Assembly (NCBI GenBank): GCA_008632985.1
Contig: QPGO01000056.1
Span: 214,406-278,405 of the forward strand
Source: Psammoneis japonica
Taxonomy: Eukaryota
Direction of reading: 5' to 3'
Length of the DNA stretch: 64,000 nt
Positions 7,960-62,929 of this stretch are shown one piece after another. Within the stretch, counting starts at the first letter, position 1, and every line of letters starts with the position of its first letter. The position numbers and the translations under genes were made by a program. A model generated the notes under the pieces. It did not search any database. It saw only the letters and a list, made by a program, of their open reading frames with translations, and was not told the origin of the DNA.

Positions 7960-7989
7960 CAAATCGATTCTTCCACTGGCCATCTGACC

Positions 7990-16556: not shown

Positions 16557-16634
16557 TTGACCATTTGCACCAACTTACTTCCTGCCTTTACCAACTTGCT
16601 GCTTGGCCAGTTTTGCAGTCCAACAACTTCTTGT

Positions 16635-20996: not shown

Positions 20997-21111
20997 AGAA
21001 TCAAAACTGAGTGGGACCAACCAATGCTTTTAGACAACTTAACATGCTTTTGCAGCTGACTCCAGCTCCATTTTCTAGAATCACAACTGAGTGGGACCAA
21101 CCAATGCTTTT
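20997..21111 (+). repeat. 35-bp direct repeat, 80-bp period
   Basis: AGAATCA(A/C)AACTGAGTGGGACCAACCAATGCTTTT at 20997 and 21077. Confidence 0.85.
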
Positions 21112-21320
21112 TGGCAAGTCAGCACATTTTCACAGCTGACTCATTTGAACAATGTCTGTTGTCTCATAAAACAATTGTGAACTTTTCCTCTTTCCCAAGG
21201 TGCATTTTCATTTCTCATTTTCCTGAGCCCGGCGTTCACCCAGGTGAAGCTGGAGCACTTTGTTGGACAGGAAACATCCTGGCCAGTCATTGTGTCTGTC
21301 AGCAACAAATGACAATGAGT

Positions 21321-24300: not shown

Positions 24301-25540
24301 TGGACCACCCTTCTGTTGCTGCACTGGATTGTTGTGTTCAAGCATCACCACAGCAGTGTGGGAGAGAGGGACATTGGGAAACAGCCCAAGAGTTGCTTCA
24401 TTGCCATGGCGGTCGTGATGGGGGGCTTTGACATGTCCAATCTTTTTTCTGCATGCTCTTCATGCAAAATTCTCATTGCTTTGTCAGTGAAGTCAATTGC
24501 AACACCTGACCGATGACACAGATGCAGCAAATGCACCATGGGCACAATGCTGGGTGAGCAGACTGGAGGCACATCAAAGTCCTCATCAGGGGTGATGTCA
24601 CGCACTGGTCCAAGAGGATTGTGTTGATCAAAGGAAGAAACCGAAATGGATTCAGCACCGGGGGAGGAGGAACAGGCTCTTCCATCGGACGTGAGATTGA
24701 GGGGGGCCCACAACTGCCATCAAGACCGTTGGCTCCAATGAACTTGGGGACATCCACAGGACTGTCCTCTCCAAGGGCAGACACACCATCATCTGCAAAC
24801 AAAACAAATTGGTGGGCATTTTGGGTGGCTGCACTGGTGGCAGCAACATTGGCGGTGGAACGCAATCAACCAGAGCATCTGACGGAGGGTGGGCACAGTC
24901 CATTTCCGGCAGAGGGAGGGCCAGCTGGAGAAGAATTGTTGAATTGTGTGGGAGGAGGTGGATCTGGATTCCAAAGGACTTCAGGAAGGGGAGGCAGGGG
25001 TTCGTCATTGAAAAAACCAAACACAGCAGGATCATCATGGTCGTCAAGTGATTTGCCATCTGGAGGGGGCAGCAAATTTGCGGCATTTGAAGATGCGGCA
25101 AACCGGCAAAGAGACATTTCCTCCTTTTCATGGCAGGGCAAGCACTTCTGTAGATGAAGGGCAATGTTGGAAAAGGGGACACGGCAATGGGGGCATTTGG
25201 GTTTGTCGGTGTTGGACCCAAGGGAGGCAACGGAGGCAGAATCCAGAGGATGAGAGGAAAGAGATGTCCCGCTGGACAGGGAAGATGATTGGGCATTGTG
25301 GTGCAACTGTGTTGATGGGGAAGGGAGAACAGATGCAGCAGTGCAGTGCCAAGATGGGTGACACTGAACATTGGTTTTGGAGTCAAAACCACGTTGTCCG
25401 CAACAAGGACACAACTGAAAGACTTGGTTGGAACGGCGGAACGGAGGCAGTCAGTTGCGATGTGTGCCTGCTGAGACCACATTCAGAAAAGAAACCAGTT
25501 GGTTTGCACCAAGGACAAACAAGACCATCAGACAACATGG
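21321..25540 (-). mobile_element. Degenerate Plavaka-like (CMC-related) DNA transposase
   Basis: N-terminal C2H2-like fingers (CPWC..SRH, CPCC..QCH, CPHC..LH), then LDKTG...MEPAMCSL...WHPLGFTPNLD...LLGDVLNQERICGR...GDNPRGAFGVTIADMRH...KFHSLLHL...NFSAMIEESHLKFWAKLP...AHPNYNNNGLWHD, across several frameshifts. Confidence 0.65.
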
Positions 25541-26842
25541 CCGATGTGCAGAGACAAAGGAGTGTTAAGAAGAGAATCGAATGGAACAGCATGTGCAGCA
25601 GCAACAATCACTTGGGGGATTTGGTGAGGGCAGAAACATGGGACAAGAAAAAGGTGCGATGGGGGAAGGCACATGGAGAGAAGGATGGAATGGGCAGGGA
25701 GAGAAAATTTAGAAGGCAAGTGGAGTCCACCTTGACCAACACATGAGGCGATTTTGATGCAGAAAATTGATTGACACACAATCCAGAAATCAACACGCAA
25801 TTGAACAAACACATGAGGCTTGTCGGAAGGGGGGGTGAACAGTCAAATTGGGGAATGGAGATGTTTGTTGTTGAATGTTTGACAATTACAAACTTGAAAA
25901 ATCAGCACAATCTTGGATCAAATGGAGAACATGTCGGGATTTGTTTCAAGAAATCTTGACGGCCAGTGCGACACCTGGACCATTGGTGTCCCAGATGTGT
26001 GTGTTGGTTTGTTCTTTGCCGCCAGTACTCATCAACCAGACATTGCCTAGATTGCACAAACTTGCTTCAATGCAGCAACAAAAAGTGACAAACTCAGGTG
26101 CAGCAGCAGAAATTTCATGTGCTCTTGTTCTGTGTCATTTCTGCGCAGCAACGGCGGAGACCACACACAGCAGCAGGATTTGCGCACACACTTGCTGCTG
26201 CCAAGACATCTCTCTGTTCTGACATCACACTCTCCTCTCCTGCACATCATCTTGCACATGGTTGGTTGCTGTGCATGCTGGCCAGCTGTGCTGTCTCAAA
26301 ACAAGAGCACACGGGGGTTGCTGAGTGGGCTGGAACACAGCCTCTCCCATCACAGGAGGTCACCACTGGTGTTTTTTGATTGGGTTGTGATCACATTTTT
26401 TTTCTCTTGGTCAAAAAATCCCGTGTTGCTAGAGCTCTGCTCTAGCTGTGCTAGAGAGAGGGCCCTGCAGCACCCCGGGAGAGTGAACGCCGCCTTGCAC
26501 AGCCCTCCCGTGACGAAATGAGTGAGGGAAAGAAAAAAAAAAACCAAACTCTAATTTTTAAGTGCTACGAGGGAAAGACGTACGTAGTGCCGGTAGGGTG
26601 ATGGACAGACTCGTTGACACTGAAAACCGCGCCGCGCCGCCCCGCCGCCGCAACAACTAACAACGGGCAACGGGCTTCAACGATGAGGCTACCAATACAT
26701 GGAAACGGAACAACGTAACGTCTTGTAAGCAATACTCGTAAGCGGCTAGGAAAACAAATCATACCATGATCTGATAGGATACGACACATGAAATGGAGAA
26801 TAGCAAGCTGAAAATTAGAACAAGCTGCCGGCCGTGGAGAAA

Positions 26843-29121: not shown

Positions 29122-32100
29122 ATGGACGACGGAGACGAGGGTGTCGCTGTGGCACAAGAAGATGAAATGAGTGTGGAGGAAGAACTACAAATGGTCACAG
29201 CACCTCCTTTGTACGTTCGTCCCGCCTATTTCCGCCAAACACGCAAGCGAGGCAAGGTCTTCAAAACAGTGACGGAGCGATATATTCGCGATGATTTGTT
29301 CTTCGGGTGTTATTACGTTGACGACAGTGATCCCAAAAGGCGTGCAAAAGAAGCTGTTGTGGGACGTCCTCATGTGATTGAAAATGTTACTCAGCTCATC
29401 GCACTTATGAAGCCGTGCCCTACGTCATCTCTGGTTGTCTGTGATACCAACGTGCTACTCCACAACTTGGACGTGCTTGAACAAGGAGGTGATGGCATGC
29501 CGAATATAGTAATTCCCCAGACTTCCCTCATGGAATGCAGATCGAACCAGCTTACAGCCTATAATCGAACAGTGGAATTACTTCGATCCGTGGGAGGTCA
29601 GCGATTGGTGATTTTCTTTGCCGACCAACATCATGTGGACACTGCCCACGTTGAGAAACAAGCTGACCAGAAGGGCGCAGAAACCATCAATGACATCAAT
29701 GATGCCCGTATCAGAAATGTGGCATCTTTTTATGGCAACCGACTACGAGGAACAAATACAAAGGTGGTTCTTTTAACCGACGACGCGCAATCGCGAGACA
29801 GAGCCATGCGTGACCAAGAAGGAGACGCCGTTTACGAAGCTAGATCGGTTCGGAGTTGGGTACAGGAACTGGAACAAAAAGATCCTAAACTGTCCTTATC
29901 TGATTTAGTGGCGCAATTTGGGGGAACATCTCTGCATGCGGATGTGGGTGCTACGTCTCAGAAACAGTACTTTCCATCGCATTTAGACGCCAAGGACTTG
30001 TCTTTGGGTGTACAGTCTGGGTTGTATCACCGTGGTGTGTTGCGTTCTTCCAGCTTAACGGAAGCATGGGTGACGATTCGACGAGGAGACGAACGAGTTG
30101 CTGTTTCAATAGTTGGTTCAAATAATCGAAATCGTGCAGTGGACGGAGATGTTGTAGCGATTGCTCTAAACCCCTTGTCTGAATGGATGTCAGCCACAAC
30201 GCAAGACTCTGGTGGGATTACCAAGGACGATTCTGTAGGTATCGCGAACGACACGGCGGAGCCAACGCATGCTGAAATGAATAACGTTCCGTCTACGTTG
30301 TCATTGGATGAAGCTTCAGCAAAGTCATTGCGACCAACGGGCAATGTGGTTGGCATCTTGCGTCGCAACTTTCTGAATTATTGCGGCTCAATCTACCAAA
30401 AATCATCGTCGTCGACATCATTGTCTAAGGATCGAGACGCCCTTGCGTCCAAGTACGAAGTTGAGCATGCGGATGGGAGTACGACATGCGTGTTTTACGC
30501 AGTGGATAGCAAGATACCTCCTGTGCTTTTACGTACGACCCAGAGGCAACGACTTCTCGGACAGAGAATCCTTGTTTCTATCGATTCATGGCCAGCCAAT
30601 TCGCCATACCCTCTGGGACACTATGTAAGGTCATTTGGAAAAGCCGGAACAAAGGATGGAGAAACCCAAGTTTTGCTCCAGCAGCACAAGATTCCTCACG
30701 AGCCATTCCCTGCCAAAGTATGTCAGGTGTTTAAAATGATTAGGCGTTTTCTCGTCAAAATGAAAAAGCGCGAAAGCTCACATGTGTCTCCTTTTTTATT
30801 CCTTGTCAGGTTCTTGCATGTCTTCCTCCTGCTGACTACAAAATTGATGCTGACAGCAGTTCTGGTCGACAAGACTTGCGTCACTTGCAAATCCTATCGA
30901 TTGATCCACCAGGCTGCAAGGATATCGATGACGCTCTCCACTGCATCGTTCTCCCTAATGGGAATTATCAAGTTGGTGTGCACATTGCGGACGTGACGCA
31001 CTACGTAAAGGCTGGGACGGCGATTGACTTGGAGGCGGCCAATCGATCCACGTCAACTTACCTTGTCAACAGACGTCTCGATATGCTTCCAGGGTTATTG
31101 ACAACGGACCTATGCAGTCTAAAAGGAAATGTGGATAGGTAAGTTCGAAAGACATGGCTTGTGATCATTAGATTTGTCGGTGATTAATTTCAATGGCTTC
31201 TTGCTTCGCACGAAGGTACGCCTTTTCTGTTTTGTGGGAAACAACACCAGAAGCTGAGATTGTCAATGTTGACTTCAAAAAGACTATCATACATTCAATA
31301 GCTGCGCTTACATACCAGCAAGCGCAGAGTCTTATCGATCAACCGGACGACAAGGAGGACATCCAAGCAGGAGCTGTGAAACGCCTCGCATCTCTTGCAC
31401 GGAAGTTTCGCAGCAGAAGAATCGAAGCAGGCGCCCTAACGCTAGCGTCGCCCGAAGTGAAATTCGTTTTAGACAGCGAATCGCTCAATCCAACCGATGT
31501 TCAAGCATACACGTTGCTTGAAGCGAATGCACTGGTGGAGGAATTTATGCTTCTTGCAAATGTTACAGTATCAAAAAAGATTCTTCGGCATTATCCTACG
31601 CTCTCAATCCTTCGACGCCACCCCGCCCCGAATCGAGGCATGTTTGATGGCTTAATTAGCAAAGCAAAGAGTCGAGGATTCAAGATTGACATTGGAGATT
31701 CCAAGCGCCTTGCAGATTCGCTTGATGCTGCACAAATGGAGTCAGACCCCTTCTTCAATCGCCTACTTCGAATATTGTCAACTCGGTGCATGTCACCTGC
31801 TCAATATTTCTGCTCTGGCGAGTATAAACCCACGGACTGGCACCATTATGGACTTGCGGCTCCCGTTTATACGCATTTCACGTCCCCCATTCGACGCTAT
31901 GCAGATGTTTGCGTCCACAGATTGCTTGCAACTGCAATCGGGGTGGCTCCGTTACCTGTGCATCTTTCATCAAAAAGCTATCTTCATGATCTGGCGGCGA
32001 ACATGAACCGAAGACATCGTGCTGCTCAGTTGGCGGGGAGAGCAAGTGTGCAGCTACACACCCTCATTTTCTTTTCAGGAGAGGCGGGCAAGGAAGAGGA

Positions 32101-32458
32101 TGCATACGTACTGGATGTCGACACGTCAGGAGCTAGCGAGCCATCCTTCACTGTAATTGTTCCGCGCTATGGTATTGAAGGACGGGTGTCCCTTCCTGGC
32201 ATATCTGCAGATGACCCAAGACTTACTCGCGAGCCAGAGAAGCATCGTATTGTCTATGGTAGTAGCGACGCAAAGTCTTCACTACAGGTGTTCGACAAAG
32301 TCCGGGTGCGCATATGGGTGCGTGAGTTGCACGAATATCAAAAGGAGCTTGTGATTGATCTTTTGTCACCGTCCTTTCGACCAGGATCCACGTCAGGCAA
32401 AAGAATTAGTGACTCTGTCGAGGGACCACCAGTCAAGAAACACAGGCGATCAAACTAG
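29122..32458 (+). CDS. DIS3: Exosome catalytic subunit DIS3/RRP44 (PIN + RNB domains), 2 introns
   Basis: [45 protein letters not shown] and [18 protein letters not shown] introns at 30718-30809 and 31139-31215 restore the frame. Confidence 0.96.
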
Positions 32459-33126
32459 ACTGTTTTGAAACCGCTGCGATTCGATTTGTCAGAAGTAGAA
32501 CGGAAGTCTACGGAAGAAGACTAAGTGTTGAACACGGAAAAAGTGAAAGTGGCGTCTGCGTTGCACGCATGCTTTTACGCCACAATTCTGCCACATTGTA
32601 CCTTATCTGATCCTGCAGGATAGCCATAGACACCAGACAAATCTAAGGAGTGCCGGACAGTTTCCCACACCGTGAAGGTGCTCCTTCAATACTTCTATCT
32701 TTAGCTAATTGTAGACCAAGACTTAACGCTACTTACTGTCGAAGATTGCGCTATCCAACTCGGAGAGATTAGAAAAAAGATACACACATTCTCCCGGTAC
32801 GTAGAGATAGCTTCAAAACATAGCTTGAGCTTTTGCTAACGGTACGCATTCGTTCTCTTTCTCGACTGACTCCCTCTCCCTCGTACCATATTTTCATAGG
32901 TTAGCACCATGGTTGCGCGCGCCCTATGCCTCCGACTGAGCACGGGAATCAAGATCGCGGTATCTTCGGACACAGCAACACAGAGACACGGTTTAGGATT
33001 TTTGATTTTCACGTTTGGGTGTTGTTTTGTGCATTGTTGATCTATCCGGGATTGTGAGTTGGTGACCGAGGTCCGTGACAAAGAGTAGCAGCATCTTGTA
33101 GTACTGTGAAACCCTTCCTCATCACT

Positions 33127-33717
33127 ATGACTATTTTCAGTATCCGGAAATCCGTTTTCTTCCTATGCTTTGCTCTCTTGACCGCCGGCGCGTTAACGGA
33201 CGACGCTGAAGCTGCTGCGGCTGCTTCGGACGGTCTTTTTTCTTCGGTCAAGGAGCAGTACTACGATAATCTGTCTCCGCCCGGGAAATTCGCGACTGGT
33301 GCAGGGATTGGATTCATCGGTTCTCGACTCACAGTCAAAACAGCGTCGAAAGCTGTCAAGGTTGCCGGGGCAACATTTATCGCGTGAGTTTTTGCCCCAT
33401 GCATGCACGTCTCGTGTCTTCACCTTTTCATTCTAAATTACCTGATGATTTTCGAATTGGTTTCTTTTTCAAAATAATGGATCAGGACCGAGGTCGCTAA
33501 TTACGCTGGTATTTTTGACAAAGTATCAGAAGAAAACTCTGCACGCATTCAGATGGTTAAGAACAAAGTTGGCAACACTTTCAACCGGTACCGCCTTGAA
33601 GTTCGTCGCCAGCTCAACCCCGCCAAGATTAGGGAATGCGTAGATTCAGCCTTTACCAAAGAAAGGATGGCTACCCTCGGTGCAGCCACTGGGTGTTTTG
33701 TGGGCTTTGTTCTTTGA
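33127..33717 (+). CDS. FUN14-like membrane protein, 1 intron
   Basis: GAGIGFIGSRLTVKTASKAVKVAGATFIA|TEVANYAGI...GAATGCFVGFVL. Intron 33384-33485 (GTGAG...CAG); hydrophobic N-terminus. Confidence 0.6.
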
Positions 33718-34156
33718 CTTGTGTTCTAGGCTGATATCTATTGCCTAGCGGGAAACTTTAGTACAGTATAGCCAACACTGGAAACTTAAACAGTAATTCG
33801 AATCCTAGATAGATCATGCCCGCAGCTACAGAGAGCATAATTAAAAGATTAAAGGGTTCAAATCATCGAGCTGTTGGTTTTGCTTGCGTTCTTCCCAGCG
33901 CAAGATTGTTGCTAATTCTCGTTTAGTGGTCACAAAATCTGTTGTTGTTTTGGTCATTGGTGCCATCAGATACCACCCACAGCTACAGCACTACCTTGCA
34001 GAAATACCAGTTGTAATAGGTGCAAACATTTCGGTTTCATTAGTCTATAAAATGAACTACTGTACGTGACGAATGAGCCTTTTAGCCACACACGGATGTG
34101 TGAAATCGGCAACGATCAACGACGTTCAGACAAGCGCGCACCACACACTGTACAGT

Positions 34157-34338
34157 CGAGTAAATCTGGGTGGAGCGGTCAGTCCCTGGTCCGGGGCTGA
34201 CGCGCACGATCTGGTGGTTTGTTCTTTCCCACAATCTTATACGATCTAATCGACATAGGGTTCTCTTTGGTTTGTCACTACTACTCTTAGGCTTAAGGTA
34301 CTATCATTACCCCACGCGGCTACATCGGTATTTATTCG
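34157..34338 (+). repeat. 5' LTR of copia element 2
   Basis: CGAGTAAAT...ATTTATTCG; matches 40807-40988 except at 34210 and 34254. Confidence 0.97.
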
Positions 34339-34786
34339 CTTTATCAGAGCCATTGATGAAAAGCTGAACGAAACGGACAAGGAAACAACTCGTTGTAAAC
34401 GGTTGATTGTTGTGATTGTGTGCATGGAACGAGCAGCTGTAGAAAATGTACTGATTCGTACGCGTGGCGTCGAAAGGGGGTTGTCGCGTGCAGCGTGTGC
34501 TCTGTGTCACGTATGACGACCAAAGGAAACAGCTTGCAATGGAAAATGCTCGCAAAGTGGTCACCATCTCCATGTCATTAACGGGTGTGGAACGACTGCG
34601 GCATTGGGCAGCATGCCCGAGCGTGTGCTCACGATGGAAGCGACACGGGATTGATCACCCCGAAGTCGGTTGGCTGCGTGAACCCATCATCATGGCACCG
34701 GTCGGTGTGGCCTCCTGTGCCATGCGCACTCACACCAAATTGCGACCCATTGTGTGGGTCATTGCCTCTGTTTCTCTTGTTGCAGG

Positions 34787-36310
34787 ATGGCAGCGGCACC
34801 AGCAGTGGCACTTGCGGCTTTGGCCGTGGCGGCTGACGTGGACGCGGTGTTGCAAGTTTGTGGTGTTGTTGACCAACACGCTGGGGCGAGGCTTGTTTTC
34901 TATGAAGGGTTTGCCACTCTTGAGAACATTGCTGTTGTGGAAACGGACCATGATGCTGAGGATCTAGCCCAAAGGGCGGCTCGTCGTACAGCAGCTGATG
35001 GACGCGTGACGCTGGGGACGACACAGATTAAGAACTTGCGGGCGTTGGTTTGGTGGTTGAGAGATTTAACGAAACGGAACCAGCCACTGGTCGCGGCGAA
35101 TTTTAACATTGCAGCCATGGCGGCGGCCAGGGACGGCAGGCGCATTGAAAAGGAGTTTACGGAATCCACTGCGACGGTTGACAGCCTCACCAAATTCAAA
35201 GCAGAAGATTTTGACGTGTGTGAAGACGCTTTCTTGAACTTGTTGGCGCAGAAGCTTGGTGCACTTGAGGAGCCGTTGAAGTGTGTCGCGAGGAGGATGC
35301 CTGCACCGGCGGAGTTCGCGGACAATCAGGAGGAGCGCATGTGTCAGCTGCCGCTCGCCGGAGACGCATTTGATGTGGACAATCGTCACGTGCATCGCAT
35401 GTTAAAAGAGCATTTGATTGATGCGGCTGGCTGGGCTTGGATTGAACCATGCGACGCAACAGAAAATGGACGCGAAGCATTCTGGGCCTGGGTTGACCAT
35501 TGCAGTGGCGAAGGCGAATTGAGCAAGCGAGTTCATTTGGCCAAGGCCAATGTCGAAACGTCATTCTACAAAAAGGAAGGTGCACTTACGTTTGAGAAAT
35601 TCACGGAGAAACTCACCAGTGCCTTTGCCACTTTGGACAAGGTTCCGGATGAAAGCATGTCTGCTCGGCAGAAGGTTGAAACATTGCAGAAGGGCATCAA
35701 ATCGGAGGATGCCCGTCTTGTGGCAGCTACGGCCGTTGTTGGCAACCAGCACCCTCGTGACTTCGCGGGGGCGTGTGCTTGTTTCTCATCCGAAGTCTCT
35801 CGTTTACATGCAGGTGCTCAGTTGGAAGCCCGGCGTTGTACGAAGCGCAAGATTTCTCAGATCAGCCGAGGTGGCGGTGGTGGCCGAGGTTTCCATCGCG
35901 GCGGTCGTGGGCGTGGCGGCAGATTTGGCCGCGGTGGAGGACGCGGAGGACATCAAGGAAGGGGCGGTGATCGCACAACTGTGATTGACGGAGTCGATGT
36001 GTCGGATCCTACGAGGACATTTGCCGACCAGGAGTGGGACAGATTGCGCTTTAACGGAGGTCTCAATTGTGTTTTTCAAGCTCGTGAAAGGATGCACGGA
36101 CGCGGTGGTCGAGGAAACCCCACAGGAAGAGGCGGACGCGACGGAGGCAATGGGCAAGCAGCCGAAGCTCAGGTTCAAGACCGTCAAGGTCAAGGGCAGC
36201 AAGGTCAAGCGCAAGGTGAAAACGGTGGCCGCGGTCGCGGAGCTGACCGTGATCGTGGTGGCAGGAATGGGCGCGCTTTCGGTCGAGGGGCCTGTCAATG
36301 TCATGTTTGA
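34787..36310 (+). pseudogene. copia gag, element 2 (open but Tyr-depleted)
   Basis: EPLKCVARR, NGREAFWAWVDHCSGEG and a long RGG-rich C-terminus; ends in TGA in frame with pol. Confidence 0.85.
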
Positions 36311-39300
36311 CTGATCGGGGTGGTTTCAACTACGGGAGCGTTGGCGCATTTGGCACACATGTCATTTGCATTCATGTTGCTCATCATGTTGTCAACTGAA
36401 CCCCACCCAATGTTTCATTTGCAAGAGAAGGCAACGAAAAGGCGCGTTGCTGTGACTTCGAAACGTGTGATGAGGTCAACGACTGCCACCGCGATGACGA
36501 ACTTAACGACACCCGGCTTCATGGCGAGGAACGAATGTGACACTCATGCGGGTGCTTGTTGTGCTGGCGCTAACTGGAAACTTGTGGAATTGACGAACGA
36601 AGTCTGTGAAGTGCACCCGTTTCTAGATTCGCATGAGCCGGTTAAACAGATTCCTGTGGCGCGTTGTTGCACAGTGTGGACGGATCCGGAAACGACTCGC
36701 GAGCACTTGCTGGTTGGAGACCAAATGCTGTGGTTTGGAGCTGACATGCAGCATTCATTGTTGAACCCCAATCAGTTGCGAGCGTGTGATGTGCCCGTAC
36801 ACGACAACCCTTACGACACTCGAAATGGGTTTGGAATCGAAGCTGATGAAGCTTTCATGCCTTTCAATTCCACGGGGACAATTGCATCTTTCAAGTCTCG
36901 TGTTTCGACGGATTGGGAGGAGAAGAACTTGCCAGTGACACTGCTGACAGGAGACGCATGGAGTCCAATGGAAGTCGACATGGGTTCACCACAGCGTACA
37001 AGGGAGCAATCTGAGATGCGCACTGTCCGTTCGATGACATCTGGCATGAGACAGGAACAGATTTCAGAAATGAAGAGCGACAGGGCCAAGTCTCAAGCAG
37101 TCCAATGGGGCGAGGTTGAAGCTGAACTCACTCGATTGTCTCCAGTCTATCATCTTCAATCCTTTTGTGACAGGCTCATCAGTTCAGTCAACGTGGCTTG
37201 TGCGTGTGGGTCAGACGCAGACGAAAGAGCAAGAGCGGTTGAGGAATTGCGCAGTGAGGACCGTCACTCCAAGATCGACGCTGAAGAGCTAGCACGAAAG
37301 TGGAGTGTCGGCTTGGAAACGGCTAAGGACACTCTCAATGTAACTGCACAGCGTGGTGTGCGGACGGCGACCCAACCAATGTCAAGGAGAGTCAGGGTGG
37401 ATCACTTGGACCTGCATCGGAAAAGATTAAAAGGGACATGGTTTGTGGACACGTTAATGTCCAAGGTGAAGTCTTTGCTCGGCAACACTTGTGCCAATGT
37501 TTACACTCAGGGCAAGTTCGTAAAGGTTGTGCCAATGACCGCAAGGTCGGAGGCAGGTTTGTCTCTCGTTGACTTTACAGACGATGTGGGAGTGCCGGAG
37601 CATCTCATGTCGGATGGTGCTGGAGAGTTCACAGGACGAAGTGCCGAGTTTGTGAAACACGCACGTCGAATGAGGATCCAACTCAGGACAACGGAACAAG
37701 GTCGCAAGAATCAGAATCACGCAGCAGAAAGAGAGATCGGGTTCTTGGCTAAGCGTTGGCGCCTGCGGATGACGAGGAAGAAGGTGCCGAAACGATTGTG
37801 GGATTTTGGTCTAGTTTGTGAATCGGAACTTGCATCTTGTATGGCAAGAGGCCGCGACAAACGGACTGGGCATGAAGAGGTAACTGGTCAGACACCCGAA
37901 ACAGGCGAGTGTTTGGACTTCGGTTTCTGTGATCTGGTCTGGTGGTGGGATAGACACGACAAGCCGAATGTAACAGATGACCCGAGGAGGCTTGGACGAT
38001 GGCTTGGTGTATCTCACAAGGTCGGATCGGACATGTGTTGTTGGATTATCACGGAATCCGGGAAGACAGTTTCGAAGACTTCGGTCGAGCATGTAACGCA
38101 GGCCGACATGGTGCAGCCGGACATTCGTGTGAAAGTCGACAAGTTTAACGAACAACTGGAGGCACGGTTAGATGACACCAATTTCGTTTTACAAGGCGAC
38201 GAAGCGGCACCAGCATTTGCATTGGATGATTTGGCGATCGACGGCAACCCCGGCATGGAATGTGAAGGCGGTGTGACACCAACCGATGAGGAATGCGGGG
38301 ACATGTCATTGCCAGGAGAACGACCCGAGGACGACGACGAACAGGCAATTGATCAACATCTCGGAATGGAACTTGTGTTTGATGTTGGGACTAACACTGA
38401 ACGGCGAGGAGTCGCAGTCAAGCGGGCACGAGGTCAGGATGGGCGACCGATTGGAACCCGGCATCAGAATCCATTGTTTGACACCCGCGAACATGAGATT
38501 GAATACACAGACGGTGCCAGAGATAAGTGTGCTGCCAATGTGATCGCGGAGAATGTGTTTGCTCAAGTTGACAGCGAAGGCAACCAGCATTCCATTTTAC
38601 AGGAGACACAGGATCACGAAAAGACCGGCGAAGCCATGCCGATCCAGGAAGGAACAGTTCAGACAGCTGACGGGAACGAACATAAGAAGACAACTGCGAA
38701 AGGATGGAACCCATTGGTCGCATGGAAGGACGGCAGCTCGTCGTGGGTGAAACTCAAGGATCTGAAGGAGTCCAACCCGATTGAACTTGCTGAGCATGCT
38801 GTGGTGAACAGGTTGACCGAAGAACCGGCGTTTGCTTGGTGGGTCACGCATGTTTTACGCAAGCGGAATCGCATCATCTCGAAGGTTAAGAAGAAATGTT
38901 GGCGCACTGCCCACAAGTTCGGCACGCGTTTACCCAAGTCTACGGAAGATGCTTTGAAGATTGACCAGGAAACGGGGACGGACTGTTGGGCTCGCACAAT
39001 CAACAAGGAGATGAACAAGGTCAAGATAGCGTGGCGCGAACATGAAGCTGAAACCCCTCAAGTCGTCCGGGAAGGCAAGAGTGCAACTTTGCGTGGTTGT
39101 CAGGAGATCAGGTGCCATTTGGCATTCGACGTAAAGATGGATTTCACTGGGAAGGCCAGATTTGTTGCAGGAGGTCATGCTGCAGAAACACCATCATTGA
39201 TCACATGCTCAAGTGTTGTTTCGAGGGACAGCGTGCGGTTAGGATTCCTGCTGGCAGCATTGAATGGAGTGGACATTGCGGCTGTCGACCTGGAGAACGC

Positions 39301-40723
39301 GCATTTGAATGCCCCGTGTGCAGAGAAGATCTGGTTCGAAGGTGGCAGGGAATGTGGAGAGTGCCAAGGCAAGGTTCTAGTTGTGACTCGAGCGCTGCAC
39401 GGTTTGAAGAGCTCTGGACACTCTTGGAGGTCCGCATTGGCATCGGTTTTACGGAACATGGGTTTTGAATCAACGAAGGCGGATCCCGACGTTTGTGTTC
39501 GTGCGGCAACTTGCGACGATGGGCGCGAGCATCACGAAATGCTTTTGGTTCATGTTGACAACATTCTAATCATTTCTCATCAAGGAAAATCCATTGTCGA
39601 GAGCACAGGTGAACCATTCGCTGTCAAACCTGGGAGTGAAGGAGAGCCATCGTCATGCCTTGGAGCCGACGTCGAGAAGGTTCAGACCGAAGATGGGCGC
39701 ACCATTTGGGCAAGCTCACCGAAGTCGTGTGTCAAGTCGGCGATCAAGACGGTGGAAGGGCTGTTAGAAGAGGACGGTGACGGAGCAGTCTTGAAGAACA
39801 ATGTGAGGGACCCACTGCCTTCTAAGTGCAAGCCGGAATTAGACGCAACGGACGAGTTGGGACCCGATTTGGCAGACAGGCATTTGCAGTTGATTGGCAT
39901 TTGTCGTTGGGCGATCGAGTTGGGCCGTGTCGACATCTTGCATGAAGTTTCCATTCTCTCTCAGCATCAAGCCAACCCAAGGAAAGGGCACCTCGAAGCA
40001 TTGCACCACGTGTTCGCGTGTGTGAAGAAGCATTTGAATGTCGGTCGCATTGGTTTTGACCCGAAGATGCCTGTGATTGACGAATCTGTTTTCAACCCCA
40101 CTGTGGACTGGACGGAGTTTTGCGGGGACGTTGAGGAGGAGTTGCCGCCACGGATGCCCAAGCCCCGTGGCAACCCGGCAAACACACCTGCATTTGTTGA
40201 CGCCAACCATGCGGGAAACGTTGTCACTCGCAGATCGCATGGCGGGATTTTGACATTCGTGAACAATGCTCCGATCATTTGGTTTGGCAAGCGGCAGAAC
40301 ACAGTGGAGTCGGCGACGTTTGGTGGCGAATTGGTTGCGATGCGCATTTGCAAGGAGTTGATTGTTGCTTTGCGTTGCAAACTTCGTATGTTTGGAGCAC
40401 CGATTGAAGGCCCTGCCAATGCATTTTGCGACAACCGCGGCGTGGTGAAGAACGTCAGTGTTCCGGAATCTGTGTTGCACAAGAAGCATGATGCCATCAA
40501 CTGTCATTTGGTTCGTGAAGCGGTTGCGGCTGGCATTGTTCGCGTCGGGAAGGAGGACACGGACACGAATTTGGCAGATTTGTTTACGAAGGTGACGACG
40601 GGAGAGCGGCGTTGGAAACTTTGCTCTTGTGTCTTTTGGCAGAGCCCCGACACCAAGGCCAGACACCTGCGGCTCGGGCCCACGTGTTTTCGGCCTCCCA
40701 AGCCAGCATTGCTGGTGGTCTGA
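36311..40723 (+). pseudogene. copia pol, element 2 (open frame, RT active site HVDN, likely inactive)
   Basis: Protease DTHA, integrase SDGAGEF/NHAAEREI, RT KARFVAGGH/LHGLKSSG/HVDN (39551-62), RNase H FVDANHAG/NLADLFTK. Only 4 Tyr counted in 1467 aa. Confidence 0.92.
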
Positions 40724-40806
40724 ATTTGGGTTTTGTGTTTACCTCTCTATGAGAGGATGTTCTAGGTTTAGACGAATCGGCGTTGTCACTGCCGTTTCGC
40801 GGGGAC

Positions 40807-40988
40807 CGAGTAAATCTGGGTGGAGCGGTCAGTCCCTGGTCCGGGGCTGACGCGCACGAGCTGGTGGTTTGTTCTTTCCCACAATCTTATACGATCTAAT
40901 CGATATAGGGTTCTCTTTGGTTTGTCACTACTACTCTTAGGCTTAAGGTACTATCATTACCCCACGCGGCTACATCGGTATTTATTCG
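40807..40988 (+). repeat. 3' LTR of copia element 2
   Basis: Direct repeat of 34157-34338, preceded by the PPT and followed by TSD CAGT. Confidence 0.97.
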
Positions 40989-41341
40989 CAGTACGCTTCG
41001 ACACATAGATAGAGCAGCAGACAGCAGCCTCGTTTTTTTGTGACAGCTGACAGCCTAAAATCCTGGGAATACCTTGGTTTGCAATCATCACAACGTTGTG
41101 AGAGGTTCGTTGTTTCAGCACACAACAGCCCACCAGTTTTTTTTTCTTCGACAAATCGCTTGTGCATATAATATGAAGAGCCTACACGGTACCGGATAGG
41201 AGTTTTCTGAAGCTGGATGATACAACCGACTGCCCTGTTGTCGCCGTTGATAAGATACCAGCTTCACGGTCGTCGACGACTGAGTCTCACTTGGGAGCTT
41301 GTATTTCAAGTTTGTAGAAAGTCTAGAGTACCATAGCAACA

Positions 41342-42443
41342 ATGGAGGGGCGTACGTATCCTCGATTGTGGCACGAACCGGAGGATGAGCGGGTATCCGA
41401 GCAAACAACTACAAAACGAATCATCCTAGACGAATGCCTTTCCGACATGACGAACCGATTTACGTTGAATCAACCTCGACCTAAATCTTTGTTCTTCATC
41501 TTGAGAAATTCACTGGTTGTTGGGCAAGAGTTTATCTTAGCGTGTCTCTTATTAGAATGGCATCGGATTGAACTCAAGCTCGAAGACGAAACTCACATGT
41601 CAAAGACGGACATTTCAAAGGAAGAACGGAAACAGATGGTGTCACTGGTAATGGTATTGCTTGCATTACTGACTACCATATGTTTTGGCAATCTCGGACG
41701 CGGTTCCAAAAGGATTCAGAAGCAACGAAAAAGAGACAAACTGAGGATCCGAATGACGGATGCACTCTTACTAGCAGGTATCTTGAGGCTTCTATCGGCC
41801 GTTCTTCGCACGTTGACAGCATCTTATTCCTCAGATACAGTCCACGCCTTGGCTGTTGGTGGGATGGCTGTTCACTTATTCACGTGTGATTACTCATACG
41901 CTAATGGTCGAGTCAGCTATCCAGCGAAAAGGCCGTCGAGTCGCAGACCCGTCTTTCAGGGTGGAACTCTCTCGCTGAACGCAGCGCTGTTTTCCACCAT
42001 ATTACTTGCATCACGACTGTCTTCCAACTCAATGGTCTATATTTTTATTTCCTCTTCAATCACATTGTTTGCTTTCTACCCAGAAACACGGCATACAATT
42101 GCTGCCCAGCCGCATTCGTTCCTTGGTAAGTAGCTACTAATCCCGCAATGCGTGGGTGTGTATAACGGTGCATCTCACAGGTTGATGCCAATTCTCTCCA
42201 GCAGCCTCCTTTCTCATCACGGCATTTCTCTCACTTGCATCACTAGCGCTGCTTGCTAGTGTCGCAGAACAGGTGGCATTCGTTGCAACAATCGTTTTCA
42301 TCTGCATTGTTGCTCCAGTTTGGAAGTATTGGTTGCAGTCATCCAAAAGGATTATCGCCGGGCCTTGGGACATTGCCCACGTGTCAATCCAGAACCAAGA
42401 GTTGCAGGCCGAGATGCATGACTCTGACAAAAAGAAGCAATAG
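41342..42443 (+). CDS. PIGC: Phosphatidylinositol N-acetylglucosaminyltransferase subunit C (GPI2/PIG-C), 1 intron
   Basis: LSAVLRTLTASYSSDT, HLFTCDY, LSLNAALFSTILLASRL and C-terminal KRIIAGPWDIA. Intron at ~42126-42201. Confidence 0.88.
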
Positions 42444-42491
42444 CAAAAATTCCTCCGATTGTAATTCCTATCGTGTAGCAAAATCGAATCT

Positions 42492-43091
42492 TCAGCACAG
42501 ATCAAATCTAGCCAGTTCTTTCCACGATGGAACTCCTTCCAAAGAAGCGGGGTAAGTCGACCAGAGAGCAACTTGTGCAGCTTCAAAATCGGGGGGTGCC
42601 GCTACCTGTTTCAAAGGTGGTGCGTTTGCCTTTCCATAGAAAAACGAATAGTGCGGTTCGTATAACGGTGGCCTGAAACTGAATTCCTCTTTCAATTCAA
42701 GAGTTTCTCGTACTTTCTGTATCAATCGCATGAACGGATCGGATTTCTCCATGACGCAAATGCATGCTTGATTCCATACGAGAGAGTCGTCGTCCTCGTA
42801 CAAACTTAATACCTCCTTTCGAAAGCGACATGGTACAGGTCCAGTATCAGAGAGTGCTGACTTTAATTTACAGCGCCATTCATCGAGTTGTTCGGGAGAT
42901 TCACAGGGAACACCTCCAACCACAGTGACGTGCGGCTCAAACGGATGACTTTTTTCGTTGGACTTTGCGTACTTGACAATCTGCTGAGACAACGAGTGGC
43001 GGAGATGAGGTGGAGGTAACAGCCAGAGTGAAACCTTCATGTAGAGTTCAGTTTCTTCGTTAGAATCTGTAGCCGCCTTTGGGATCGTCAT
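42492..43091 (-). CDS. 2H phosphoesterase / cyclic phosphodiesterase (CPDase-like)
   Basis: SLWLLPP, FEPHVTVVGG and YEPHYSFFYG give two HxT/S motifs. Confidence 0.85.
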   Translation of the reverse strand: MTIPKAATDSNEETELYMKVSLWLLPPPHLRHSLSQQIVKYAKSNEKSHPFEPHVTVVGGVPCESPEQLDEWRCKLKSALSDTGPVPCRFRKEVLSLYEDDDSLVWNQACICVMEKSDPFMRLIQKVRETLELKEEFSFRPPLYEPHYSFFYGKANAPPLKQVAAPPDFEAAQVALWSTYPASLEGVPSWKELARFDLC

Positions 43092-46836: not shown

Positions 46837-49646
46837 TTACGCAGCCGATGCAGTTACACTGGAGGCTGTTTCCGAAGCCATCGCCCGCTTGATCTCACTC
46901 TCAAGAGCTTTAAAGTCCTTGTTTAGATGTAGCTTCTTCTCAGCCTCTGCAACAATATGAATCGCGGTGAAAACTGAATCCGGCGTAAGCGAGATGGAGT
47001 CGATTCCTTGTTCCACAAGAAACGCGGCAAACTCAGGCTTGTCACTAGGAGCTTGTCCGCAAAGACCAACAGGTATGCCATTACGGTGCGAACCAGCAAT
47101 CGCTTCTTGAATGGCTGACTTTACCGCCGGGTTTTCCTCATCAAAGAGGCTCGCTAGTTCACCACTGTCGCGGTCTACGCCGAGAACGAGCTGGGTCAAG
47201 TCGTTGGATCCAATGGAAAAGCCATCAAAGAGAGCAGCAAAGTCATCAATGGCTAGGACGTTGGCAGGAATCTCACACATGCACCAAACTTTAAGACCGT
47301 TTTGTCCTTGTTTCAATCCCTTCTTGGCGAGAATGTCAATCACGTTCTTCGCTTCTGCCGTTGTACGACAAAAGGGAACCATAAGTTCCACATTATCCAG
47401 GCCCATTTCATTGCGAACATAAGATAGAGCCTCGCATTCAAGCTCAAAGGCATCTTTAAACTTGGGGTGGAGATATCGCGCAGCTCCACGAAGTCCCAGC
47501 ATTGGATTTTCCTCATCCGGTTCAAAGTATTCACCACCCACGAGACGACAGTACTCGTTTGATTTGAAGTCGCCGAGACGGACAATGACCGGGCGAGGAT
47601 AAAAGGCGGCAGCAATGCTTCCAATACCTTCAGAAAGCTTTCGAACGAAGAAGTGCCTGGGGCTGGGGTCGTTCTTGGCTTTTTCCTGAATTACCACAAG
47701 AGCCTCCTCGTTCACTCGATCGGGAAAGAGTACCGCATTCGGATGAATGCCAATGTGGTTCGCAACCACAAATTCTTGGCGCACTAGTCCAACTCCAGCG
47801 ACCGGTAGATGAGCATGTGCAAGAGCGGAATCGGGGTCTCCCAGGATGAGCTTTACCTTGGTCTTGGGCTTTGGAAGATCCTCAATGCTAAACTCGGTGT
47901 GCTGAATATCAGCAACTCCTTGATGGATGCGTCCCTTGCTGCCGTTGGAACAGTCTACCGTGTATAATTTGCCAGTTTCGAGTTTCTCTGTGGCATCTTT
48001 TGTGCCAACAATGCACGGCACGCCCAATTCTCGACTTACAATTGCAGCATGACAAGTGCGGCCGCCGCGATTTGTAACGACGGCTGATGCCATGCGAATG
48101 GCAGGTACCCAGTCTGGGTCGGTAATGTCAGCCACGAGTATTTCTCCCTTTCTCATTTGAGAAATATCGGCAAGATCATGAATCACTCGTACTTTTCCGC
48201 TGGCTGCACTAGAACCAATGGCTGTGCCATCGAGAACTGCTTGGCCTTGATGTCGAACCACTGTCTGGGTGAGCGCTTCCTGATGCTGACGAGACTTTAC
48301 AGTTTCTGGTCTGGCTTGCACAATATAAAGCTTCCCCGTGATTCCATCCTTTGCCCACTCAATGTCCATTGGTGTGGGGTGTCCATGAAGCTTACTGTAG
48401 TGATTTTCAATGTCCACGCACCACTTTGCAAGGGTCTTGGCATCTTCATCGGTAAAACAGGCTTTACCTTGGTCGGCTAGAGAGGTCTCTATGGTTTTCG
48501 TCCGTTCATGAGGAGAGTCGTAGGAATAAATAATGGACGTCTGCTTACGTCCAATACGGCGATTGATAATGGGGTCCTTTGCTTTTCCAATCATTGGCTT
48601 GAACAATTGGATTTCATCGGGATCCACCTTTCCGCCAACGACGGACTCTCCTAGGCCATACGAGCCGGTAATGACAACAACGTTGCGAAATCCCGTATCA
48701 GGATCGAGTGTAAAGGCAACACCCGAACTTGCGACATCACTCCGCACCATTAACTGAACGGCTACCGCACCCTTGATCTTCATGTGGTCAAATTGGTTGT
48801 GTACACGGTAGGTAATGGCGCGATCGGTGAATACCGAGGCCAGGCACTCCAGGACGGCATCCGCCACGGCTTTTCCTCCAACCACGTTCAAAAACGAGGC
48901 TTGCTGCCCAGCAAAGGATGCTGTCGGCAAGTCTTCGGCGGTTGCCGAGCTTCTTACGGCAACGGAAACTTCCGTGTCGTCGGAGCACATGCTTTTGTAT
49001 GCCGCTTCAATGTCTTGGATAATGTCTTTCTGCATGGGTGCCACAATTGCATCATACTGTCAGTGTAAGCTAAAAAGAGTCATGCAGTTGCAAGAAGAGT
49101 AGGATTTTGTTTTCTTACCGGTAGACCTTCCTCCATAATCATGCGACGCGCTTTGCTGCCACGAGCAGCAAGGTCGTCAATGTCAGAGACTAATGCAAAT
49201 AGGAATAAAAAGACTGAGTGAGGCCACTCTAATTTCTCTCGATAGAACATTCAAAAAGCACCAGAGAGCCCACATGTTCATCACATACCATCAAGATCAT
49301 TCAAGAGAAGATTTAGTCGTTCTCGCAGTTTGTTTTGATCGAGAACCGCATCGTAAGCGCTGGATGTCACGGCAAATCCCCCAGGAACTTGCACCCCAAG
49401 TGGCATCAATTCTTGAAGGAGCTCACCAAGAGAAGACGTCTTTCCACCGACCCTCGGCAAATCACAGAGACGGAGTTGATCAAGTGGAATACAAAACTCG
49501 TCGTTTAAGGCATTCTCGTTTTTATTGTTCACGAGAAAAGCGCTTGTCCGCGCGAGTGTCGACATGGTCCGTGTGCGTCTCACGGCAATGGGACTAAAGG
49601 CGGACGCACAAGAGGCAAGAGTTACGAGTAGAATTGCAGTCTTCAT
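46837..49646 (-). CDS. ppsA: Phosphoenolpyruvate synthase (pyruvate, water dikinase), plastid-targeted, 2 introns
   Basis: VGGKTSSLGE, VAVRSSATAEDLPTASFAGQQ, DIEWAKDG, QARPETV, GGRTCHAAIVSRELG, FSIGSNDLTQL, CGQAPSD. N-terminal signal peptide followed by ASA-FSP. Confidence 0.95.
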
Positions 49647-49895: not shown

Positions 49896-49929
49896 GAAAT
49901 GTCGGATTTGTGTTTCGCTCGGACCAAGG

Positions 49930-51868
49930 CTTGCGCAACGGTGAGACTGAGCTGGGGTGGTGGCGTGATGGGTGAGGCCAAAATGGGTGGATGTGGCACT
50001 GTTCCAGGTGGCTCTGGCAGCAGGGAAGAGACCCATGGGAAAGTGGGGCATGGACACACTCGCACAGGCAGGTGCTGGAAAGAGGACTCTGACTGCTGAT
50101 GTCCAGCCAGGGCAGAAATGGGGTGGGGTGCTCTTGGTTGGATCCAAAGCAGAGGCAGTGAGAGCAAAGCAGCCAGGTGTGCCAAATTGGTCAATGGCAG
50201 TTGACAAAGGGCACACAAGGCAGATGCCAATGTGTGCTGTGTTTTCATGTGATGCTGACAATTGGTTCAAGAAAATGGCCAGCCGCGGCCAAGCTTCAGA
50301 AGCTTTGCTTCACCATGAAAAGACGCTTTTGTGGACCCATCAACATGACATGCAATGGTTGGTGTTGGAATTCTGACAATGCATTGACCCTGTTGAAAAC
50401 GTTTTCAGTGACATTGTGATGTCAACATGTGGCATGGAAGACTGAGCAAGGTCAGCAGCATTGTGGCGTGACGGTTGACGTGGCTGGAGCCCAAGAAGGG
50501 CTTGCCCTGAATGTGTTTCTTTGGATGCACGAAATGCAAATGACATGTTGGCCCTGTTGGAAGTTGCTTTGACAGTGTTGTGACAAACACAACCAGTGTG
50601 GATGACTCAGCAGAGCTCAAATTGGTGGCATGACAGTGAAGTCAGCCTCAGCCCAAGGAGAGCTTGTTGTGAAAATGTTGCTCTGTGGATGCAGGAACTG
50701 TGGCTGGTTGCTTTGTCATTCTTTTCTCCATGCTGCAGCAGTTTGGAGAGCTCTTTTTGGCAGCAACCAATTTGGGCAAGGATCCAGAGATCTTGGCCCT
50801 GTGCATTTGAAAGACTCTGCCGCTGCTCCCAGAAGAAGAAGCGCAGAAGGCATTCCGAGAATCCTGCAGAGCTGGTCTGGACTCTCACCCTGCAAACAAA
50901 TCAAAGCAGCTGCACATTTTCATCACCAGCTTTCCCAATTGTGGCATGACTTCTCTGCTTTGTGCCTTTGAGGACTGCAAGGAAACTGAGATCAGGGGTG
51001 GGGAAAGCTGTGTGATTTTGCCAACCCCAATCTAGCTGACATGGATGCAAGGGCCAAACTGGACGATGCACTCACTGCATCACCCAACACTGAAGACTCA
51101 TCCCTTGAGAGCATCATCAAATGTCCAAGTGGTGCAAGATGACACCATGCGATTGACCGTCTGAGTTTCCACTCCCCAGACGTGTGCATTGTGATTGGCA
51201 TTTGGCATCCTGTCAAGCACCTCCAGTGCTTCCACAACTGTCGTGTTACGGAAGCTTGCCCCAAATGTGAGAAAGATGAGCGTGTCCCTTTGGTGGAAGA
51301 CCTTGTTGGATCCATGGATTGGAAGGGTGCATCAACCAACAGTGCCAGGCTTGAGCCATTTTTTATGCAGCTGGGAAAGGCAGACATGTCTCCACATGAG
51401 ATGCAGTCAGGAGCTGTCGAGCCAGAAAAACGTAGCTGTAACAAAATCAACAGCCAAGATGTTCTTGCACTCCCTTGAACAGCTTGAAGACAGTGACGAG
51501 AAGTGCAGTGCCGTAGAGACTTCCGACAGGACATGCACAACTTCCTTCAGTTGGAGGAGCAACTTGAGCCCTTTCAAAATTAACACAAAAACCACTTTGT
51601 GGGCGTCAAAGCATTTTCAGAAACCATCGATATCTGCAATGAAGACTTTGACCACATTCGAGGGCCAATAGTTTATCAGGGAAAGAGGACACAAGAACGG
51701 ACAACAAGTCGGTTTCTCTTCAATCCTGACGTGTTGCAGGAAACAGAGAGCATTTTCTGCGTTTGCTCGACCCTTGCATTCGTGGAGAATCTGAACTTTC
51801 CTTCAACGCCGCAGCGCCCGAACCTTCGTTGGATTAACAGAGCCGTGCATTACGCATTTTGCGGATGA
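49930..51868 (+). pseudogene. TpA-depleted island with an unidentified decayed reading frame
   Basis: TA is nearly absent and CG reduced over ~49930-51400, returning to normal toward 51870. Broken + strand frames; no recognisable TE motif. Confidence 0.4.
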
Positions 51869-62900: not shown

Positions 62901-62929
62901 GGCGCCTTTGGACCCCTCCACCCGCGCTG

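Follow-up and report, generated by a model that had tools for sequence, protein, structure and literature searches.

How can a single retrotransposon carry nearly identical, TA-rich long terminal repeats (LTRs) around an interior from which TA dinucleotides have largely disappeared? The question is raised by a complete Ty1/copia LTR retrotransposon at positions 34157-40988 of a 64,000-nt stretch of nuclear DNA from the diatom Psammoneis japonica (assembly GCA_008632985.1, contig QPGO01000056.1, positions 214,406-278,405, + strand), referred to here as the window. An original prediction, made from the sequence, had described LTRs that differ at two of 182 sites (one of them TA/CA) and that keep many TAs, a perfect target-site duplication, a pol gene almost devoid of tyrosine codons and a reverse transcriptase (RT) motif reading HVDN, and each of these features was confirmed on checking. 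It had also offered two alternatives, namely mutation after insertion that spares the edges of the element next to genes, which it favoured as a position effect, or the mobilisation in trans of a copy that was already mutated. Our answer is that the element was hit by a mutator that is specific for TA and acts on both strands of integrated DNA, a conclusion in which we place high confidence. That the body acquired its hits at the present locus while the LTRs were largely protected is a more tentative statement which, taken as a whole, we hold at slightly less than even confidence.

The pol product contains four tyrosines in 1470 residues (0.3%), compared with 2.7-3.7% in 44 of the 45 relatives for which tyrosine content was tabulated. 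The remaining one, P0020, a 1405-aa pol from another source, is intermediate, with 1.7% Tyr, 3.9% His and 2.2% Cys. Aligned to its 19 best relatives, pol differs at 124 of the 787 columns used, which are those conserved in at least 15 of the 19. A>G at TA accounts for 31 of these columns and T>C at TA for 24, next to 8 changes at CpG, 13 other transitions, 20 transversions and 28 columns where more than one step is needed. TA-type changes make up 55 of the 76 single-step transitions at conserved columns, at 31 vs 24 for the two strands. All 31 conserved tyrosine columns have lost their tyrosine, reading now Cys (16), His (13), Phe (1) or Ala (1), and at the RT active site, where the relatives have YVDD (17 of 19), FVDD (one) or YTDD (one), the element arrived at HVDN through a TA>CA change (Tyr>His) and a CpG>CpA change (Asp>Asn, GAC>AAC after C). 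When unmutated relatives were each compared with the consensus of the others, they deviated at 25-159 of ~800 columns, with zero or one Tyr>Cys/His change apiece; given this range, the 69 non-TA differences of the element are no more than normal divergence between lineages, and it is the TA class that stands out. The same range led us to reject the non-TA changes (69/787) as a date for the body. A looser threshold yielded 65 directed hits (37 TA>TG and 28 TA>CA), and the two directions are interleaved (29 runs vs 32.8 ± 3.9 in shuffles, P = 0.20). The changes are TA-specific, affect both strands and occurred site by site and independently. Despite the loss of all conserved tyrosine columns and of the RT active site, the long frames stay open, because neither TA>TG nor TA>CA can create a new stop codon.

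The outcome at a given TA varies with its neighbours. Measured against the pol genes of 12 unmutated relatives (58 kb), TA survival in the element is 0.00 at ATAT, 0.10 at both ATAC/GTAT and ATAA/TTAT, 0.12 at CTAC/GTAG, 0.13 at GTAC and 0.17 at ATAG/CTAT, and it rises to 0.45 at GTAA/TTAC, 0.58 at TTAA, 0.64 at CTAA/TTAG and 0.69 at CTAG. There are six sensitive contexts (0-0.17), the first three being the most sensitive, and four partly refractory ones (0.45-0.69), and these values place the body near saturation at its sensitive sites. In absolute terms, pol has 46.0 TAs per kb in the 12 unmutated relatives, 11.1 in the element and 7.7 in E1, a second Ty1/copia element of the window that is described below, while the old repeats at 8-26 kb are down to 4.1 TAs per kb. 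At TTAA, survival in the oldest repeats is 0.52.

The ends of the element look entirely different. Its depleted core holds 64 TAs in 6143 nt (10.4 per kb) vs 31 in 364 nt (85 per kb) for the LTRs, a contrast with P ~1e-14 after correction for composition. In the depleted part, the observed/expected ratios (obs/exp, used hereafter for all dinucleotide values unless stated otherwise) of CA and TG reach 1.2-1.8, as opposed to 0.6-1.0 in the LTRs (CA 1.04 and 0.95, TG 0.64 and 0.63), which are without sign of past hits. The direct repeat itself extends over 183 nt (34157-34339 and 40807-40989) and is 99% identical; taken as a pair of 182-nt LTRs, it contains one T/G transversion and one CA/TA difference. 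On the 5' side the spared zone is graded, passing from a pristine LTR through 242 partly depleted nucleotides to 206 nt without any TA, whereas the 3' border is abrupt and lies between ~40735 and 40748, directly past the pol stop. Residual TAs show no 5'-to-3' gradient along the element, and the richest stretch of the body (37400-38200) has only about twice the mean TA density of the body.

Several simple explanations for this contrast were rejected. The depleted domain does not coincide with the open reading frame, as the TA-free zone begins ~200 nt upstream of the gag ATG. Nor did the TAs of the LTRs survive by virtue of a refractory context, since they lie mostly in sensitive ones; at the hit probability of the body (0.76), one hit or fewer in 31 LTR sites has P = 6e-18. 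Were selection on cis-acting sequences the sole cause, all 15-16 TAs of an LTR would have to be essential. Unless the LTRs and the body arose separately, the mutator must to some degree have been excluded from the former.

That hits arise after integration is evident from E1, which belongs to another family, since its LTRs, identical at insertion, now differ at TA-derived dinucleotides. As the original prediction had it, the LTRs of this element are mutated: the copies at 1022-1198 and 7784-7960 are 92% identical and show 14 differences, 11 of which fall at nine TA-derived dinucleotides, with two at CpG and one transversion. Two of the nine dinucleotides were hit oppositely, reading TG in one LTR and CA in the other. 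The mutator acts on integrated DNA, although the main element supplies just one LTR difference of this type (TA/CA). The LTRs of E1 retain 10 and 7 of ~16 original TAs, its 700-nt leader has a TA ratio of ~0.35, and its coding part stands at 0-0.1 from ~1900 onward. Across the window, TA ratios are 0.00-0.25 in repeats (with CA/TG up to 1.9) and 0.4-0.8 in host genes, and sharp TA borders occur at ~26.4, 49.9, 51.3-51.8 and 57.6 kb. The footprint is confined to selfish or foreign DNA, and host genes are spared.

The LTR/body contrast was also found outside this genome. Among 80 metagenome loci encoding relatives, three (L005, L045 and L052), all members of a related copia family, are TA-depleted, with whole-contig values of 0.25-0.30 compared with 0.53-0.92 for the other 77. 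Each of the three comprises the end of pol, the 3' untranslated stretch, a GGGGAC tract and an LTR before entering flanks that are unrelated to those of the others, so they represent three separate insertions. Their TA ratios climb from 0.10-0.20 in pol through 0.28-0.63 in the untranslated stretch to 0.58-0.91 in the LTR. Judging by the medians of 55 unmutated relatives, which are 0.65 in pol and 0.84 in the downstream 400 nt, the native difference between these regions is small. The contrast is systematic, recurring in E1 and in all three environmental copies; two of these four recurrences lie in or beside TA-free DNA. Together with P0020, the environmental copies document that the footprint occurs in nature at several stages.

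These recurrences bear on the gene-edge effect that the original prediction had favoured, and which is not supported in that form. E1 is embedded in TA-free repeats, and still about half of its LTR TAs are kept next to a coding part at 0-0.1. The same contrast is found at three insertion sites in L005, L045 and L052, the flank of L052 being TA-poor itself, and in the window old TA-free repeats reach up to host genes with sharp borders. Sparing follows the LTR and the non-coding ends themselves, not the neighbouring DNA. On the other hand, the two alternatives had been the right pair to consider, and the one not favoured, mobilisation in trans, gains some direct support from the family copies discussed below.

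The insertion is recent and still polymorphic. Parts of the window occur in three public sequencing runs of one sample, as short contigs. In run X1, a contig of 2023 nt, whose depth of 58 is like that of the flanks, joins 34156 straight to the sequence past the 3' CAGT; this empty site confirms the ends of the element and its 4-bp duplication, and it is the reason for regarding the element as polymorphic. A contig of run X2 spans 40911-41500, i.e. from the 3' LTR into the flank, with zero differences, which demonstrates the filled allele in the same sample. In line with a recent insertion, the CpG ratio of the body shows no depletion so far (0.99-1.06).

Between the empty and the filled allele, the flanks differ by a TA/TG and a T/G site (41395 and 33769) and, at 41005-41010, by a short indel within an ATAG repeat, which is ordinary allelic divergence of ~0.3%. 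At appreciable depth, run X2 covers just 33600-33809 and 40911-41500 and contains nearly nothing of the multi-copy body; one of its contigs starts inside the 3' LTR, ~20 nt past a TTATAC, and continues towards the GPI2 gene. If X2 were RNA, this would point to read-out transcription that starts in the 3' LTR; we drew no conclusion, as the run is not recorded as RNA and contigs cannot show a start.

The runs also inform about the family of the element. Summed contig depth per bin is 570-2300 over the body vs 54-110 over the flanks, implying a family that is many-copied at a likeness of at least 80%; only half of the sampled words of the window are present in run X1. Our tally of variants against the run contigs refers to 40 of 1002 variant places, 38 of which lie inside the element and two in the flanks (33769 and 41395). 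This copy reads CA or TG where all contigs have TA at 6 of the 38 places within the element, and the reverse (TA here, CA or TG in all contigs) applies to 4. At 10 further places CA or TG in this copy faces CG in the contigs, at 2 its CG faces CA or TG, and the remainder are 14 other transitions and 2 transversions.

A mutator of integrated DNA with the same specificity has been described by Mettrop et al. (bioRxiv 2026, doi 10.64898/2026.01.13.699255), who found viral DNA integrated in the genome of Bigelowiella natans to be hypermutated at TpA; our comparison draws on parts of that preprint. In mutation-accumulation lines, 231 substitutions were found in two integrated viral regions, 230 of them A>G or T>C at TpA, and these regions mutate ~1000 times faster than the remaining genome. 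TpA-poor coding sequences of B. natans are enriched for reverse transcriptase and transposase domains, the target is single-copy, and an ADAT2-like adenine deaminase was proposed as a candidate; ADARs are noted to favour a 5' U before the edited A (10.64898/2026.01.13.699255). The diatom case agrees with this system, as far as those parts describe it, in the A>G/T>C changes at TpA that give TpG or CpA depending on the strand, in the restriction to foreign or selfish sequence of integrated nuclear DNA with sharp domains, and in the long-term loss of TpA with a gain of CpA and TpG. It differs in its host, a diatom (stramenopile) instead of a rhizarian, and in its targets: inserts of giant viruses and virophages are hit in B. 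natans, LTR retrotransposons and old repeats in the diatom. The loss of TA is also much more extensive, with a TA ratio of 0.0-0.2 as opposed to 0.45 in the nucleocytoplasmic large DNA virus region of B. natans. Neither a tetranucleotide preference nor an LTR/body contrast nor the copying of mutated elements is reported in those same parts of the preprint, which do provide an experimental rate, whereas the diatom case is known from its footprints. Judged by its sequence signature, the process is best described as a diatom instance of this kind of TpA-specific mutator, in a new lineage and on new targets. No account of TA-directed hypermutation in a diatom came up in our literature searches, and the term-matching passages of PMC2806351, 10.1101/2025.10.24.684338 and PMC6604790 make no mention of TA hypermutation. 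Among the long frames of the window, no deaminase gene was noticed in a general survey that was not aimed at deaminases.

How might such a mutator have produced the present element? In our reading, the A of 5'-TA-3' is converted to G on either strand of integrated double-stranded DNA, giving TA>TG or TA>CA, and TA sites are hit singly and independently; adenine deamination, as put forward for B. natans, is most likely the chemistry. The activity would be directed at the body of an integrated copy and for the most part barred from the LTRs and the non-coding ends next to them while a protected state persists, active promoter chromatin being one possible state of this kind. Protection may lapse later, as it would have done in E1. 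With a ruined body and intact LTRs, a copy could still be transcribed and copied by means of the proteins of another element, and through such copying in trans hits would also be inherited. Hits acquired at this locus need neither a helper nor a special event, and they agree with a 5' border that is graded over ~240 nt. If the B. natans rates apply, TA sites could be erased long before background mutation touches two LTRs of 182 nt.

Several observations weigh against hits at this locus, and most of them favour the strongest alternative, in which the body was copied, by means of proteins from an intact element, from the RNA of an older, TA-saturated family member and has changed little since insertion. 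We regard this inherited origin as a serious possibility, though on balance we do not expect it to be correct. To begin with, at least two inactivating changes in the body are of the CpG type (the TGA at 36308 and the Asp>Asn of the RT motif), and there is no CpG difference between the LTRs, which faintly suggests a greater age for the body than for the LTR pair. An RT with the motif HVDN is dead, moreover, and copying such a body needs a helper. Besides, derived states are found in multi-copy contigs of the family at 34303, at 34693/34694, where this copy has TG and two contigs of a summed depth of 258 have CA, and at 37503, where G accounts for 1681 of 1806 depth, which implies that the family of the element has seen the copying of mutated templates. 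The environmental copies L045 and L052 (90.65% identity) share the direction of the hit at 8 of 13 informative sites and are opposite at 5, where one third would be expected to agree if hits were independent (P = 0.035).

Exposure to the mutator points the same way. The LTRs of E1 and of the main element differ ~20-fold in this respect (11 hits in ~32 sites vs 1 in 31), their bodies only ~1.5-fold, as seen from survival in E1 and in the element at TTAA (0.44/0.58), CTAA/TTAG (0.51/0.64) and CTAG (0.58/0.69). A fixed ratio of body to LTR rates fits the two elements marginally (a ratio of 15 leaves tail probabilities of 0.045 and 0.053), which means that protection would have to change with time.

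On the other hand, an inherited body shifts the puzzle to the template, which needs unhit LTRs as well, so protection of the LTRs would still be required at the template locus. The LTRs show no excess of CA or TG, and selection cannot plausibly keep all 15-16 TAs of an LTR while ~90% of the sensitive sites of the body are hit. No template copy was seen, the sister copies being visible as short contigs only; within the window, a blastn search with the element returned no sister copy, its sole match being 59 nt to E1, and no intact helper element of the same family was seen there either. The graded 5' border fits a positional effect just as well. The evidence would be reconciled either by protection that lapses with time or by a template with a ruined body and protected LTRs.

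LTR protection could be dispensed with altogether if the element were a recombinant cDNA, reverse-transcribed from two co-packaged RNAs of the family, with its LTRs, the start of its leader and the 3' untranslated stretch taken from an unmutated RNA and its body from a mutated one. Retroviruses switch templates frequently, and their second strand transfer needs a matching primer-binding site; LTRs free of past hits beside a nearly saturated body, and the abrupt 3' border at ~40735-40748, are what such an event would leave behind. It would, however, call for exactly two switches, both at the ends, and none within a body of 6.1 kb, in which there is no unmutated patch. The 5' border is graded rather than a junction, and to account for E1 and the three environmental copies, events of this sort would have to have recurred or been passed on. 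We therefore consider this origin improbable.

Even less probable is editing within a single retrotransposition cycle, in which RNA or single-stranded cDNA would be deaminated in the particle, in the way that APOBEC3 attacks retroviruses, while the early double-stranded LTR and the primer site escape. Such editing would account at a stroke for LTRs that are identical and a body that is mutated, and in HIV editing by APOBEC3G is indeed low near the plus-strand origin. Yet editing of one strand should yield one direction or long runs, and we counted 37 vs 28 hits on the two strands in random interleaving. Besides, there is no 5'-to-3' gradient of residual TAs, the region upstream of the purine tract is spared where it should be the most edited, and the LTR differences of E1 are hits that came after integration. 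An artefact of assembly or polishing that joined LTRs and body from different copies of a multi-copy family (570-2300 vs 54-110 depth, half of the sampled words in X1) is hardly credible, given an independent X2 contig that runs from 40911 into the flank without a difference, the exact fit of duplication and empty site, frames that are both continuous over 5.9 kb, and the same contrast in separately assembled environmental contigs. What is left of our confidence goes to explanations that we have not considered.

Among better-known systems, the repeat-induced point mutation of fungi (RIP) is similar in that it, too, heritably introduces transitions at a particular dinucleotide, which disables elements where they stand and alters their base composition while the copies stay. 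RIP, however, changes C to T mostly at CpA, creating TpA and stops and lowering GC, whereas in the diatom TpA is destroyed, stops do not arise and GC rises. It depends on duplication and on the sexual cycle, and within a round it is strand-coordinated, unlike the interleaved hits of the element. RIP itself was rejected as the process, as TpA is lost rather than made and the frames are open. APOBEC3 and ADAR editing in animals likewise leaves retroelements with hypermutation of a deaminase type, which is then fixed in the genome, but it works, within the replication cycle, on single-stranded cDNA or RNA, and on one strand, whereas the diatom hits fall on both strands at random and accrue after integration. 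As for copying without own proteins, non-autonomous LTR elements are mobilised in trans, examples being BARE2 by BARE1 in barley and the helper-dependent mini-Ty1. The present element resembles these in its intact LTRs, primer site and purine tract and in lacking working proteins of its own, a state in which it may have been copied, yet the defects known from them are deletions or a few point changes, while here full-length frames have been recoded at TAs.

A wider scenario, which we rate as unlikely, would credit diatoms with a defence that edits DNA under guidance. Steered by chromatin or small RNA to the bodies of newly integrated retrotransposons, an adenine deaminase activity specific for TpA would abolish what they encode while the insertion is still polymorphic, leave the LTR promoters untouched and thereby produce 'zombie' copies that continue to be transcribed and copied. 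Together with Bigelowiella, this would amount to an old, widespread defence of the stramenopile-alveolate-rhizarian (SAR) lineages that mirrors fungal RIP.

As to its class, the element is a diatom (CoDi-like) Ty1/copia retrotransposon: RT type, paired LTRs, target-site duplication, a primer-site-like tract and a purine tract are all present (Table 1). The RT domain matches Pfam RVT_2 (PF07727, E = 5e-12) at pol residues 944-1095, with ~940 residues before and ~375 after it; upstream of the RT, an integrase signal is seen as a weak rve_3 match (E = 0.056) in the relative P0023 only. The closest relatives of pol are 64% identical and metagenomic, and where a relative is named, the source is a diatom (Fragilaria crotonensis or Nitzschia inconspicua). 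The whole gag frame (34682-36310) encodes 542 aa with two tyrosines. Gag and pol share one frame that is continuous over 5.9 kb and interrupted only by the TGA; the latter aligns to Arg in three of four relatives with a fused gag-pol and is probably a CGA>TGA change at CpG, going by this alignment. The putative primer-binding tract that follows the 5' LTR resembles the initiator-tRNA-Met primer site of copia elements, and E1 has TTTGTCAGAGCC at the equivalent place. A GGGGAC tract precedes the LTR in E1, L045, L052 and L005 as well. The LTR termini are CG...CG instead of TG...CA in the element and in L045, L052 and L005, while E1 has TG...CA. The target-site duplication has 4 bp, where copia elements usually have 5 bp. 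No tRNA gene was found in the window and no Rfam family at 32000-43000, so there is no sign of targeting to genes transcribed by RNA polymerase III.

Table 1. Coordinates of the main element and of the comparator E1 in the window (TA, CA and TG values are obs/exp)
Feature	Position	Strand	Remarks
5' target-site duplication copy	34153-34156	+	CAGT in the sequence; CAGT single in the empty-site contig of run X1
5' LTR	34157-34338	+	182 nt; termini CGAG...TTCG; 15 TAs (1.34)
Primer-binding-site-like tract	34340-34351	+	TTTATCAGAGCC; 1 base past the LTR
Leader, part 1	34339-34580	+	242 nt; partly depleted; 7 TAs (0.42); TG 1.69
Leader, part 2	34581-34786	+	206 nt; upstream of the gag ATG; zero TA; CA 1.78; TG 1.74
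gag	34787-36307	+	C-terminal end Gly/Arg-rich; TA 0.21
In-frame TGA	36308-36310	+	separates gag and pol
pol	36311-40723	+	1470-aa open frame; putative protease and integrase region, RT, RNase H region; TA 0.20
RT catalytic motif	39551-39562	+	HVDN (CAT GTT GAC AAC)
3' untranslated stretch	40724-40806	+	83 nt; 4 TAs (0.85); without CA/TG excess
Purine tract	40799-40806	+	GCGGGGAC; adjoins the 3' LTR
3' LTR	40807-40988	+	182 nt; 16 TAs (1.43)
3' target-site duplication copy	40989-40992	+	CAGT
E1, Ty1/copia of another family	1022-7960	+	177-nt LTRs; body TA-depleted and split into several frames

The remainder of the window offers a few observations in their own right. In the old repeats at 8001-26000 and 49900-51300, TA (0.00-0.13) and CpG (0.03-0.45) are both depleted and CA/TG stand at 1.6-1.9; here, two decay processes converge on the same dinucleotides. 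In E1, in the main element and in the block at 58-64 kb, TA has been lost but not yet CpG, which makes TA loss the faster process. The old repeats also contain tandem duplications at 10645-10869 (104 nt twice, 90%) and 20989-21142 (74 nt twice, 82%). The block at 57600-64000, with a GC content of 0.55-0.72, nearly TA-free and with long open frames on the + strand, is matched by no Pfam family and does not resemble the copia relatives; probably it represents a further hypermutated element, one that extends past the edge of the window. The host frames, long and poor in introns, code for a Dis3/Rrp44 exonuclease, a GPI2 subunit, a PEP synthase, an EF-hand protein and an arrestin-like protein. The PEP synthase (pyruvate, water dikinase; 46837-49059, - strand) has its best named relatives in Nitzschia inconspicua (74%) and Thalassiosira sp. 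(67%), and outside diatoms the nearest ones are from myxobacteria-like bacteria (58-60% identity), which suggests an old bacterial origin of the diatom gene.

In summary, a TA-specific mutator of integrated DNA, so far shown in one chlorarachniophyte according to the 2026 preprint, gains a second lineage with the diatom. The LTR/body contrast is a feature that the parts of the preprint used here do not report for the B. natans system, and the footprint is far more complete in the diatom, where it lies on retrotransposons that are still moving. With fully hit and unhit domains on one molecule, separated by borders within ~15-250 nt, the element constitutes a natural experiment on targeting. For genomes of this kind, LTR divergence and the age of transposable elements would be misread unless TA sites are masked. 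As the three environmental contigs make plain, the footprint is detectable in metagenomes too, and our findings suggest that the process is widespread in marine algae, where it may shape the repeat landscape, GC content and transposon turnover.

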